Below, piece by piece: positions 27,596-30,313 of a stretch of 64,000 nucleotides of DNA. Position numbers and translations under genes: made by a program. Position 1 is the stretch's first letter. Every line of letters begins with the position of its first letter. Below the pieces are notes generated by a model that was not told the DNA's origin, ran no database searches, and saw only the letters and a list, made by a program, of their open reading frames with translations. The stretch covers positions 331,692 to 395,691 of the forward strand of contig CAVVNQ010000008.1 of NCBI GenBank assembly GCA_963749705.1. Direction: 5' to 3'. The DNA comes from an uncultured Chloroflexia bacterium (GTDB lineage: Bacteria > Chloroflexota > Limnocylindria > Limnocylindrales > CSP1-4).

Positions 27596-28483
27596 TCAGC
27601 GGGCGGGCGGCGGCAGGCTCCCGACGAACCGACGGATGACCCGGGCCAGCTGCGGACCGGAGACCTCGCCCGCCTCGAGCACCTCGGCGTGGGTCAGCGG
27701 CTGTCCGCTGTACCCCGCGCCCGCGTTGGTGACCAGGGACACGCCGCACACCTCGAGCCCGATCCAGCGCGCGGCGATCGCCTCGAGCACCGTGGACATG
27801 CCGACGGCATCGGCGCCCATCGTGCGCAGCATCCTGACCTCGGCCGGGGTCTCGTACGTGGGGCCGATCAGGCCGGCATAGATGCCCTCGGCGAGCTCGA
27901 CGCCCTCGGCCGTCCCGGCCGCGTGGAGCCGCTCGCGGAGGCGGGGTGACCAGACGTCGGTCATGTCCGCGAACCGGGGCCCGAGCTCGTCCGCGTTGGG
28001 CCCCAGCAGCGGCGTGCGTCCAGTGAGGTTGAGGTGGTCCGAGATGACCATGAGCGTCCCGGGCCCGAAGGACGGGTTGACGCCGCCGGCGGCGTTGGTC
28101 AGCACCACGAGCTCCGCGCCCAGCTGGCGGAACAGCAGCACCGGCTGGACCACCAGCCCGGGGGCGTTGCCCTCGTACAGGTGGAACCGGCCCTGGAGCA
28201 TGACGACCGGGGTCCCGGCCAGCCGGCCCAGCAGCACCCGGCCCGCGTGCCCCGGTGCCGTCGCGACGGGCCAGCCGGGCAGGTCCTCGAACGGGATGGT
28301 GACCGCATCCTCGAGATCGTCGGCGAGGCTGCCCAGCCCCGATCCCAGGACGATGCCGGCGCGCGGGACGAGGGCCGTTCGCGCTCGCACGGCCGCAGCC
28401 AGGGCCGCCAGGCGAGCCGGTTGCTCCGCGGGCGCGATCGGGCGCGACCGGTCGATGGGCGTCAGGGGAAGGTCGTCGCTCAT
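27596..28483 (-). CDS. punA: Purine nucleoside phosphorylase (trimeric, PNP I)
   Basis: GIVLGSGLG, GHAG, QGRFHLYEG, TNAAGG, GPTYETPAE, VGMSTV, SLVTN; TATCCT lies 6 nt before the ATG. Confidence 0.95.
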   Translation of the reverse strand: MSDDLPLTPIDRSRPIAPAEQPARLAALAAAVRARTALVPRAGIVLGSGLGSLADDLEDAVTIPFEDLPGWPVATAPGHAGRVLLGRLAGTPVVMLQGRFHLYEGNAPGLVVQPVLLFRQLGAELVVLTNAAGGVNPSFGPGTLMVISDHLNLTGRTPLLGPNADELGPRFADMTDVWSPRLRERLHAAGTAEGVELAEGIYAGLIGPTYETPAEVRMLRTMGADAVGMSTVLEAIAARWIGLEVCGVSLVTNAGAGYSGQPLTHAEVLEAGEVSGPQLARVIRRFVGSLPPPAR

Positions 28484-28502
28484 GGGGGCAGGATAGCCGC
28501 GC

Positions 28503-28822
28503 GCCGATGGGTCGGCATCACCGGACGCCTGGGCTGCGGCGGAGTCGCCTGCGCCCGATCGCGGTCCGGGAGCCGAAAACTTCGACGCCCGGAGGGAGTA
28601 CCGACACCGGGATGCCGGTCACGTCCTTCCGGGCGCCCACCGCGACGGCCCTTGCGGACCGCCGACGCTGGCAACGAAGCGCCCGAAGCGACCGGAGAGC
28701 GTCGGTCCTTGATGTGATCGCGGACCTGACGCCGGCGTGGCCTTGAGGTGATCTCAGCCGGCCGGGTGGAACGGGCTTGAGGCGATCGCCTCCGTTCCGG
28801 GCCTCCATCGGCCCCTTCGGGC
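28503..28822 (-). ncRNA. Putative novel structured ncRNA (~310 nt) with three tandem loop-conserved hairpins
   Basis: Own promoter; ends pair (GCCGAUGG/CCAUCGGC); three hairpins with loops GCGAUCGCCUCAA, GAGAUCACCUCAA and GCGAUCACAUCAA; GCAA tetraloop and G-U pairs favour the minus strand. Confidence 0.7.
28707..28787. repeat. Three 13-bp direct repeats at an exact 34-bp period
   Basis: CCTTGATGTGATC (28707), CCTTGAGGTGATC (28741), GCTTGAGGCGATC (28775), separated by unrelated 21-bp spacers. Confidence 0.9.
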
Positions 28823-28829
28823 AGGACCC

Positions 28830-28858
28830 ACACTAGGGGCGCCGCGCCCGACCTCCAA
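28830..28858 (-). promoter_or_regulatory. Sigma70-like promoter for the putative ncRNA
   Basis: Minus strand TTGGAG-N17-TAGTGT. Confidence 0.6.
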
Positions 28859-28863
28859 GCGGG

Positions 28864-28938
28864 TTGTCCACCAACCGCGGGCCACGGCCCGTCCCGTCGT
28901 CCACGAGTTTTCCTCCCCTGTGGACGACCTGTGGACGA
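28864..28938. promoter_or_regulatory. Cluster of four DnaA-box-like 9-mers
   Basis: TTGTCCACC (28864), TCGTCCACG (28897), TGTGGACGA (28919, 28930); 1-2 mismatches to the high-GC box TTGTCCACA. Confidence 0.55.
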
Positions 28939-28965
28939 GCGGGCCTCCCCGGGTGTCGGGCGGCG

Positions 28966-30078
28966 CTAGCCGCCCAGCGCGAACATCTCCACCTTGGGCA
29001 GCAATTCCGTGGCGGCGCTGCGCAGCTCCGAGTACCGGTCGGTGCGCACCGCCCACACGGCCCGCAGCCGCGCCTCGAGCTCCGCGTCCGTCTCGCCGTC
29101 TCGCAGCGGCGTCTTGAGGTCCGTCCCGTGCACCGCGAACAGGCAGGTGTACAGGTGACCCTCGGCAGACAGCCTCGCCCGGGTGCAGTCGCCGCAGAAC
29201 GGCCGGCTGACCGAGGCGATCACGCCGACCTCGCCCGAGCCGTCGCGGAACCGGTACCGGCCGGCCACCTCCCCGCGATAGTTGGCGCCGACGGGCTCCA
29301 GGGGCAGCTCGGCATCGATCGCCGCCAGGATCTCGTCCGCGGGCACCACGTCATCGAGGCGCCAGCCATTCGAGTGCCCCACGTCCATGTACTCGATGAA
29401 CCGCAGGACGAGGCCCCGGTCCCGCGCCCACCGCACGAGCGGCAGGATCGACGCCTCGTTCATGCCCCGGCGCACGACCGTGTTCACCTTGATCGGCGTG
29501 AGGCCGGCGGCGCGGGCCGCGTCGATGCCGTCGAGAACCCGCGACACGGGGAAGTCGACGCCGTTCATCGTGCCGAACACGCGATCGTCGAGCGAGTCGA
29601 GGCTGACGGTGATCCGCCGCAGTCCGGCGTCGGCGAGCGGAGCGGCGAGGGCACGCAGCGCGGAGCCGTTCGTGGTCAGGGTGAGGTCGACCGGTTGCCC
29701 GTCCTCCGTGCGCAGCTTCGCCAGGTGCCCGATCAGGACCGGCAGGTCGCGACGGACCAGCGGCTCACCGCCCGTGATCCTGAGCTTGCCCACGCCGAGC
29801 CGGACGAAGATGCCGGCCAGTCGCGCGATCTCCTCGAACGTCAGCACCTCCGCCCGCGGCAGGAACGCGAAGTCGCGGCCGAACACCTCGGCCGGCATGC
29901 AGTACGGGCAGCGGAAGTTGCAGCGGTCGGTCACCGAGATCCGCAGGTCGCGCAGGGCGCGGCCGAGACGATCCGTCACGCCGGGGCGCCCATCGAACTC
30001 GAGCGCCGAGGCAGACGCGGGTGCGGCGGCGAGCGAGGTTCCAGGCGGGCGGAGGGGAGGATCGGGGACGGGTGCCAT
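28966..30078 (-). CDS. moaA: GTP 3',8-cyclase
   Basis: LRISVTDRCNFRCPYCM radical SAM motif, FCGDCTRARL...C and C-terminal ALGG; TACCAT lies 6 nt before ATG 30078. Confidence 0.97.
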   Translation of the reverse strand: MAPVPDPPLRPPGTSLAAAPASASALEFDGRPGVTDRLGRALRDLRISVTDRCNFRCPYCMPAEVFGRDFAFLPRAEVLTFEEIARLAGIFVRLGVGKLRITGGEPLVRRDLPVLIGHLAKLRTEDGQPVDLTLTTNGSALRALAAPLADAGLRRITVSLDSLDDRVFGTMNGVDFPVSRVLDGIDAARAAGLTPIKVNTVVRRGMNEASILPLVRWARDRGLVLRFIEYMDVGHSNGWRLDDVVPADEILAAIDAELPLEPVGANYRGEVAGRYRFRDGSGEVGVIASVSRPFCGDCTRARLSAEGHLYTCLFAVHGTDLKTPLRDGETDAELEARLRAVWAVRTDRYSELRSAATELLPKVEMFALGG

Positions 30079-30313
30079 GGCGCCATGGTAGTCGGCCGGC
30101 CGCAACGTGCCCCGATCCGGGGGTCGGATCGGTCCGCGGGCCCAACCGCGGCCTGCACCGGGAGGCGGTGCACCGATGCCACGACCCCCACCCGCCGGTA
30201 CCACCGGGATGCCCCACTGGTACCTCTAGCGACTCCACCGGAGCCCACCGGCCCGCCTATTGTCAGGCCAACGCCCGGTTCTCGGTCCCCGAGTGCAGAG
30301 GAACTTCCCGGTC

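Follow-up and report, generated by a model that had tools for sequence, protein, structure and literature searches.

Small RNAs that present one loop motif on several hairpins are known from a number of bacteria. In the CsrB and RsmX-Y-Z RNAs, paralogues of differing length stand behind a shared upstream promoter element, the number of hairpins bearing the motif varies, and the transcripts are abundant. Variation in loop copy number is typical of titrating RNAs. Pyrimidine-rich loops are used by Listeria LhrC, the pneumococcal csRNAs and RNAIII of Staphylococcus aureus, and LhrC1-5, the csRNAs, RNAIII/RsaE and the actinobacterial 6C RNAs have repeated loops of this type in siblings under one promoter motif. 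The RNA described here comes from a 64,000-nucleotide stretch (the window; contig CAVVNQ010000008.1 of assembly GCA_963749705.1) of an uncultured member of the Limnocylindria, a group of widespread uncultured soil and freshwater Chloroflexota. It is a very highly expressed, previously undescribed minus-strand RNA of this soil lineage, and three of its hairpins carry nearly the same 13-base loop. While small RNAs with repeated identical loops are known as a kind, the family, the motif and the lineage appear to be new. A full-text literature search combining Limnocylindria with noncoding RNA returned no paper, and none describing such an RNA was found in the portions of text available. The original prediction had noted a likeness of the loops to the anti-Shine-Dalgarno (anti-SD) tail of 16S rRNA.

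The transcript was delimited with metatranscriptome contigs from four runs, belonging to four studies, that were placed on positions 28380-29060. Together these contigs cover 28580-28822 only, except for a trivial X9 piece at 29009-29047. A single 241-nt contig spans 28580-28813, and another ends at 28822. In two X2 contigs a run of 24-26 non-templated T precedes 28579/28580 on the plus strand, which indicates a poly(A) tail on a minus-strand RNA that ends at 28580. Alignments of the homologous loci show, in order, a TAnnnT box followed by the start of a conserved block, three hairpins with variable stems and constant loops, and a second conserved domain. Among same-genus sequences conservation drops abruptly after ...GGGCGUCGAAG(UUUAA), and the limits of the conserved block are those of the contig cover. 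Contig cover, poly(A) end and conservation thus define the following element.

28580..28822, minus strand: small RNA of 243 nt, running from 28822 to 28580, with 5' start GCCCGAAGGGGCC and 3' end ...GGGCGUCGAAG; contig cover and alignment limits agree.

In runs of 25-880 million letters the contig depths add up to thousands, while the depth over neighbouring coding sequence is zero; such depth sums relatives and is a poor expression measure, not a copy number. For the flanks (28380-28563 and 28840-29000), no cover means absence of contigs only. The sequencing-run search gave shares of 0.10-0.21, and the habitat terms are the labels of the four runs only. From the depth in these small soil, sediment and paddy metatranscriptomes, the RNA is probably among the main non-ribosomal transcripts of the cells, and it could serve as an activity marker for the lineage in metatranscriptomes.

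The fold was derived with RNAalifold from 21 of the 23 homologous loci in same-genus genomes. Left out were L023, which has a long insertion in the third hairpin region, and L024/L029, a single fragmentary locus near a contig end. A two-domain consensus was obtained, scoring -196.8 in the sense and -172.1 in the antisense direction. In this fold 94.3% of the cells are paired and compensatory changes occur in 25 of the 90 pairs. None of 500 shuffles scored as high, and slid controls gave 3-8 compensatory pairs. Many invariant G-U pairs would become A-C mismatches on the opposite strand. The elements of the fold are as follows.

28810..28822, minus strand: 5' strand of P1, GCCCGAAGGGGCC; helix 1 has 17 pairs, 4 of them compensatory (e.g., C-G to U-A, A-U to G-C).
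28681..28693, minus strand: 3' strand of P1, GGUCGCUUCGGGC; helix 1, which closes the 5' domain bearing the three loop hairpins.
28768..28798, minus strand: hairpin 1, stem GGAACGG/CCGUUCC; helix 2, 99.2% paired, 2 compensatory pairs.
28777-28789, minus strand: 13-base loop of hairpin 1, GCGAUCGCCUCAA.
28732..28765, minus strand: hairpin 2, stem GGCU/GGCC with outer CGG/CCG; helix 4, 4 compensatory pairs.
28743-28755, minus strand: 13-base loop of hairpin 2, GAGAUCACCUCAA, with an exact 9-mer of the 16S tail.
28699..28731, minus strand: hairpin 3 (universal), stem GCGUC-A-GGUCC/GGACC-GACGC; helix 6, 4 compensatory pairs.
28709-28721, minus strand: 13-base loop of hairpin 3, GCGAUCACAUCAA, the 3'-proximal one; matched in 122 of 126 distinct homologues.
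28580..28680, minus strand: 3' domain, a three-way junction of helices 8-11.
Within 28580..28680, minus strand: P5, GCUUC/GAAG(U), and the P6 hairpin with a GNRA-type loop (GCAA).
Within 28580..28680, minus strand: P7, a long hairpin with the near-invariant GACGYGAYYGGCAUCCCGGUGUCRRUACUC and two independent C-G to U-A changes in its tip.

The small helices drawn inside the loops (helices 3, 5 and 7) show no covariation and are broken by several sequences; for the inner GAGGC/GCCUC of hairpin 1 (helix 3), the number broken is 4-6. The original prediction of a structured minus-strand RNA is borne out by the poly(A)-tagged contigs, the covariation and the promoter placement. Its other option, an opposite-strand transcript displaying super-SD loops that capture 30S subunits, is contradicted by the poly(A) 3' end, the promoter placement, the G-U pairs and the better minus-strand fold.

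High contig depth and family-wide conservation are also what would be expected of an RNA polymerase-binding RNA of the 6S or Ms1 type that replaces 6S RNA in this lineage. 6S RNA (RF00013) and the mycobacterial Ms1 share with the present RNA abundance, lineage-wide occurrence, stability, a length of about 200-300 nt and paired 5' and 3' regions, and the Rfam 6S model found nothing in the 16 class genomes searched (own genome included) but had a hit in 35 of 151 phylum genomes. However, the same model misses 116 of those 151 genomes and was positive in only 4-5 of 14 control genomes. Searched with RF00013 at E up to 1, the own genome gave no match. The covariation-supported fold consists of two domains, both multi-branched, and lacks the rod and central bubble of 6S; the repeated loops are given no role. 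Of the readings considered here, this one is the least probable.

The three hairpins occupy 28699-28798 of the minus strand, with covarying stems and loops of the form G-M-GAUC-R-C-M-UCAA. Read on that strand, the loops are GATCGCCTC (loop 1, 28779-28787), GATCACCTC (loop 2, 28745-28753) and GATCACATC (loop 3, 28711-28719). Hairpin 2 holds CGGCUGAGAUCACCUC, and loops 1 and 3 hold GAUCGCCUC and GAUCACAUC. The minus-strand letters of hairpin 2 are as originally given; the reverse complement of plus-strand 28745-28760 was verified as CGGCTGAGATCACCTC. On both strands of the 3.6-Mb genome GATC[AG]C[AC]TCAA occurs 6 times, 3 of them here within 70 bases; a hand estimate from base composition gives an expectation of about 1.8 genome-wide. 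The shorter GATCACCTC has 176 occurrences in the genome, most of which are opposite-strand codons, GAG GTG ATC.

A wider census covered 126 distinct homologues (140 sequences minus 14 duplicates between two collections) and identified, by a regular expression for the motif, 258 loops. The number of loops per RNA is 0 in 4, 1 in 54, 2 in 12, 3 in 47, 4 in 6 and 5 in 3. Two of the rows with no loop are cut by the end of the locus (L033, L085), and the other two are Streptomyces records that match the 21-mer alone (L081, L091). The two letters before GAUC are G and then A or C in 256 of the 258 loops, though the expression did not demand them. When two mismatches or fewer were allowed, 197 stem-flanked loops (strict stem filter, duplicates included) varied solely at the U/C of GAUC. 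GAUC itself is kept in about 91% of loops, duplicates again included. At the fifth base 177 of the 258 loops have A and 81 have G, and all of the loops continue AA(G), never CUU. The loop 13-mer is thus almost invariant while the stems covary, as expected from the original view that the repeated loops are the functional, selected part of the RNA.

The loops differ mainly at one position. In the universal hairpin, the one nearest the 3' domain (loop GAUCACAUCAA), CAUC is found in 116 of 122 cases and CCUC in 6. Among the non-terminal extra hairpins CCUC is present in 90 of 136. Overall 96 of the 258 loops have CCUC, and in the other 162 the middle C is replaced by A. The universal loop, which looks ancestral, is without the anti-SD core.

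The palindromic GAUC might point to an architectural role, in which loops form kissing contacts within or between molecules and assemble a multimer or work a conformational switch. The great majority of loops keep the palindrome, the GAUU variant self-pairs through G-U, loops with GCGAUCGC are 8-base palindromes, and the RNA is highly structured, with the GNRA-type loop in its 3' domain. Yet only 64 of 297 loops (duplicates included) have a complementary M and R (C with G) on either side of GAUC, with a mismatch there in most, 54 of the 126 RNAs have a single loop, and the CMUCAA 3' half, which is even more invariant, is left unexplained. Self-assembly of this kind is very unlikely.

The RNA belongs to a family with 1-4 paralogues per genome in one family of the Limnocylindria. 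In the own genome CCCGAAGGGGCC is present in exactly four copies. Every copy is preceded by a GTGGAYAA box, a -35 of the TTG type and a TAnnnT -10, and is closed by a 13-bp stem of GCCCGAAGGGGCC with CCUUCGGGC. The three siblings, of a predicted ~75-190 nt, which share the 13-bp closing stem, are located as follows.

C10:33650-33745, minus strand: sibling RNA, a short form with one hairpin and the loop GCGAUGACAUCAA; relatives elsewhere read GCGAUCACCUCAA or GCGAUCACAUCAA.
C2:290084-290190, plus strand: sibling RNA with a different inner part and a loop that contains GCAUCA.
C4:22014-22230, plus strand: sibling RNA with a different inner part and the loop GAGUGAUCAUCGGA; GUGUCGGUAC is common to this copy and the long RNA's 3' domain.

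Of 24 other genomes in the genus, 22 retain the region. A pattern of 21 letters taken from the 3' domain matches at least 118 stretches in a collection with one genome per species, and nearly all the homologue records listed are labelled Chloroflexota, Chloroflexia, Limnocylindria or Limnocylindrales. The two Streptomyces records match this pattern only. Full-length homologues also occur under other labels (L037, L048, L063, L080 and L093; Deferrimicrobiaceae, Polarisedimenticolia, Binatia, Anaerolineaceae and Dormiibacterota), and these contigs may be mis-binned Limnocylindria or reflect horizontal spread. At two mismatches or fewer the pattern occurs in 30 of the 44 genomes sampled from the window's family. 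In the other families of the class 5 of 106 genomes have it, with matches that are chance-like, and elsewhere in the phylum about 4 of 180. Among the matches listed, the gene order moaA, RNA, MTAP is kept in 102-104 of 118 loci.

The promoter elements of the long RNA are conserved along with it.

28830..28835, minus strand: -10 box TAGTGT (TAnnnT in homologues), 7-8 nt 5' of the RNA start, in conserved columns.
28853..28858, minus strand: -35-like TTGGAG (TTGACC in most homologues), 17 nt 5' of the -10, from alignments and pattern matches.
28864..28871, minus strand: upstream box GTGGACAA (GTGGAYAA), directly 5' of the -35 and common to all four paralogous RNA genes.
28897-28904 (minus strand), 28920-28927 (plus strand) and 28931-28938 (plus strand): three further GTGGACGA-type boxes, read from the sequence.
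C2:289983-290035, C4:21910-21965 and C10:33788-33831: clusters of GTGGA(C/T)(A/G)A boxes of the paralogues, on contigs of the own genome.

The box GTGGACAA is the sole match within the 64-kb window. All four paralogue promoters have clusters of 3-4 GTGGA(C/T)(A/G)A boxes at and upstream of the -35, and the proximal box of each cluster, GTGGAYAA, is conserved family-wide. A composite pattern of box, -10 and cap is present in 1-4 copies in 13 of 17 genomes of the family. A second family has it in 3 of 20 genomes, and three others in 0 of 23; the reversed pattern, used as a control, was found in 0 of 61 genomes. This type of box presumably resembles the reverse complement of the DnaA box, or an MraZ-type repeat.

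An invariant loop on changing stems, 1-5 copies of it per RNA, siblings behind one promoter box, high depth, and a motif position that is either A or C together suggest an RNA with multivalent docking sites. At position 7 of the motif, where A and C alternate, no single target base pairs with both. We tentatively regard the RNA as one that titrates or scaffolds a single trans-acting partner in the manner of the Rsm/Csr RNAs, the partner being most likely an RNA-binding protein, and give this somewhat less than an even chance. The three hairpins would then be a variable-number module, in which each stem presents the same 13-base loop, G-M-GAUC-R-C-M-UCAA, as a docking site for the partner that the RNA titrates or scaffolds. 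The level of the RNA would be set through the shared GTGGAYAA box. The transcript with its strand and ends, its abundance, its fold, the constancy of the loop, the varying loop number, the paralogues and their common promoter box are shown; the binding of a protein by the loops and titration as its effect are inferred. The working traits of CsrB are present (1-5 loops per RNA, 4 paralogues, the shared GTGGAYAA box), and they mark a likeness rather than membership. In contrast to the CsrB and Rsm RNAs, the loop here is a 13-mer, there is no sequence or Rfam similarity, and the RNA is not a member of that family because it has no GGA motif and no CsrA was found. Should the partner prove to be a new global RNA-binding regulator, the circuit would be the first of the Csr/Rsm-like type in the phylum. 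The modular design, with a fixed stem, a fixed box and 1-5 invariant loops, provides an experimental handle, since the loop can be used as bait for the partner.

Several observations weigh against a docking RNA of this kind. The candidate partner proteins that were checked gave nothing: the own genome, at 88% completeness, yielded neither CsrA (PF02599; controls positive in 3 of 14 genomes) nor Ro60/TROVE (PF05731), and 41 class genomes yielded no Era with a KH domain. Of the four paralogues, just two carry the full loop motif. Contig depth measures expression poorly, and one X6 contig extends 255 letters beyond 28580, as read-through or DNA. A consensus promoter and terminator scan at the locus called neither, the -10 TAGTGT included. 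The lack of a promoter hit is explained by the weak -35 of this copy (TTGGAG, 3/6 to TTGACA), and the promoter assignment consequently rests on conservation and contig ends. Finally, within the genus each hairpin position keeps its own loop variant (GCCUC, ACCUC or ACAUC), and such position-specific variants fit distinct base-pairing targets at least as well as one protein.

The last point is the best support for a regulator that pairs with several messages, its loops acting as antisense seeds at or near the ribosome-binding sites or start codons of mRNAs. Loops with CCUC would pair with GAGG, and GAUG or GUG regions would be the targets of those with CAUC. In favour of this, the loops are exposed and conserved and rich in pyrimidines, 90 of the 136 non-terminal ones have CCUC, as part of the loops in the LhrC, csRNA, RNAIII/RsaE and 6C group do, and a shared promoter box would suit the regulon of a single-regulator small RNA. 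Set against this, the whole 13-mer is invariant, well beyond a short seed, the universal loop is CAUC without CCUC, and species would differ in having anything from 1 to 5 seeds. Contig depth as high as this, itself a poor measure, would be unusual for a stoichiometric antisense regulator. The extended complement GAGGTGATC (GAGGUGAUC) stands beside a start codon at only 3 candidate start sites genome-wide, and there is no other full complement of any loop in the genome. The RNA differs from the known pyrimidine-rich ones in the length of its conserved unit, in the CAUC of its universal loop, in a copy number of 1 to 5 and in that the complement and start-site searches found no conserved targets. 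Base pairing by the loops is a real but doubtful possibility. The scarcity of complements also speaks against the earlier proposal that the RNA masks strong SD sites.

The likeness to the 16S tail was compared with the rRNA of the own genome. This 16S gene, on the same contig, ends ...GGTGCGGCTGGATCACCTCCTTTCT, read as ...GGUGCGGCUGGAUCACCUCCUUUCU. Loop 2 shares with it the exact 9-mer GAUCACCUC, or 15 of 16 letters if stem letters and one inserted A are counted, and loops 1 and 3 share 8 of 9 bases; 0.0036 chance matches of one given 9-mer would be expected in 16S rRNA. The comparison called for in the original prediction therefore came out positive for this genome. As a conserved trait, anti-SD mimicry did not hold up. 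In sequence comparisons it is not the conserved feature, because CAUC occupies the position in 116 of 122 universal loops and the exact GAUCACCUC is present in only 49 of 258. Free variation at the CACCUC positions, named at the outset as evidence against mimicry, was seen in part: the middle C of CCUC is A in 162 of the 258 loops. No loop completes CCUCC, since AA follows in every one. Within the match, CGGCUG belongs to the stem and varies among homologues (pair 79:94). The family consensus fits an internal 16S site at 1135 (GATGACGTCAA; GAUGACGUCAA) as well as the tail, and the consensus 11-mer, at two substitutions or fewer, matches 34% of shuffled 16S sequences. No site complementary to the loops with fewer than two mismatches was found in the rRNA operon. 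Mimicry of the rrn leader was also rejected; the leader has a boxA-like CCUUAACAA and nothing loop-like. The likeness, 8-9 of 9 bases, is real but probably incidental.

A reader of this tail is well documented. According to a review (PMC10582724), Era binds GAUCACCUCC and its KH domain reads the base of helix 45 (h45), GAUCA (especially the two adenines) and CCUCC; adenine A1534 is stressed as important, and the protein is described as near-universal in bacteria and lost in most Candidate Phyla Radiation (CPR) phyla. The RNA resembles this arrangement in that a helix is followed by GAUCA(C)CUC, with identity over 9 bases in loop 2. It differs in that the motif is inside a closed loop, 81 of 258 loops have G for the second adenine (the A1534 equivalent), no loop has a complete CCUCC and Era was not detected in the class genomes searched.

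In 41 genomes, the own one and 40 more from the class, no full Era with a KH domain was detected. The matches of TIGR00436, the model for Era, in these 41 genomes cover GTPase domains only and never go past about model position 202 of 270. They mostly come as two in one frame and look like tandem Der-type GTPase domains; a tally of 32 of 41 genomes above the cut-off arises only from summing such same-frame neighbours. The KH_2 model PF07650 has two matches in the own genome, one of them, between rpsP and rimM and close to trmD, a small KhpA-like KH protein. The specific idea of an Era decoy fails because the Era model matches only GTPase domains in the class genomes searched.

In general form, mimicry of the 16S 3' tail (GAUCA plus CCUC) would have the RNA compete for SD sequences or decoy a factor or nuclease, and so shift translation or 30S maturation. 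In addition to the exact 9-mer of loop 2, nearly all loops keep GAUC plus R, a helix that leads into single-stranded GAUCA would resemble h45 and the tail in geometry, the contig depth is of the order needed for a ribosome-directed titrator, and readers of GAUCACCUCC such as Era exist (PMC10582724). With CAUC in the universal loops, G at the A1534 equivalent, loop ends of AA instead of CUU, a variable CGGCUG stem, an equally good match inside 16S, matches in 34% of shuffled sequences, no Era with a KH domain detected in 41 class genomes and few extended SD sites, such mimicry is unlikely. The originally proposed decoy of something that reads the 16S 3' end survives in its general form and fails for Era. 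The RNA would then soak up a factor, nuclease or SD-like sequence and set 30S maturation or the balance between SD-led and leaderless initiation, and the extra CCUC hairpins would be a lineage-specific strengthening of the mimicry. A high-copy decoy of this type (helix plus GAUCA-CNUC), in a class seemingly without Era, is a decidedly slim prospect. If the likeness were functional, it would imply a new control of ribosome biogenesis or translation initiation.

Known RNA families do not account for the locus. Rfam 15 gave no match at gathering score in the 64-kb window. At E up to 10 there were four matches in 28350-29100, far below gathering score and to eukaryotic or unrelated families. The three paralogues gave one match below gathering score, SNORA57. 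The element is not SRP RNA, RNase P RNA or tmRNA because all three are present elsewhere in the genome. A bacterial Y RNA was rejected, with PF05731 not found in the own genome and moaA-like and PNP_UDP_1 neighbours. A coding reading (minus-strand open reading frames 28518-28808 and 28480-28833) was rejected: 5 of 21 homologues lack the ATG, indel lengths do not keep to multiples of three, and no stop codon is reached before the end of the RNA. The loop was compared by eye alone with anticodon loops, T-loops and K-turns, and fits none of them. A possible likeness between the loop and RNA bound by the NusA KH domains was dropped. A replication origin or other DNA-level element was likewise rejected, given flat GC skew in the window, dnaA on another contig, and the covariation and expression of the RNA.

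The RNA lies in a 482-base gap, which also holds the originally flagged bases, between two minus-strand genes.

28966-30204, minus strand: moaA-like radical-SAM gene, flanking the gap.
27596-28483, minus strand: PNP_UDP_1 phosphorylase of the MTAP type, flanking the gap.

A 5' leader or riboswitch of the MTAP-like gene was considered and rejected on the poly(A)-tagged end at 28580, the lack of contig cover over 28484-28579 and a spacer of variable length. A separate, leaderless mRNA is suggested by a conserved box of the TATCCT type some 6 nt ahead of the ATG. The X6 contig does pass 28580.

Two further regions of the own genome were noted in connection with the promoters. In the rRNA operon leader (C8), two tandem TTGACA-type promoters stand upstream of 16S together with the boxA-like CCUUAACAA. 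The rRNA promoters have no GTGGAYAA box, and the small-RNA family is therefore not simply reusing the rRNA promoter design. At C8:207180-207290 (locus L161, ~2180-2290) there are seven boxes, (T/C/G)GTGGA(C/A/T)(A/G)(G/A), about 20 bases apart, beside AT-richer stretches and a promoter-like TTGACC-N17-TATCGT. This region looks like an origin or a strong regulator-binding region; dnaA sits on another contig (C3:188541-189023).

The start of the MTAP-like gene deserves mention in its own right. At 28484-28500 of the window (minus strand), and at the homologous loci, a conserved TATCCT, TATGCT or TAGACT box lies about 6 bases before the ATG with no SD-like sequence, an arrangement that suggests a leaderless mRNA. 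The genes that follow two of the paralogous RNAs are arranged likewise, with TATGAT and then GTG in one case and TATCAT and then ATG in the other.

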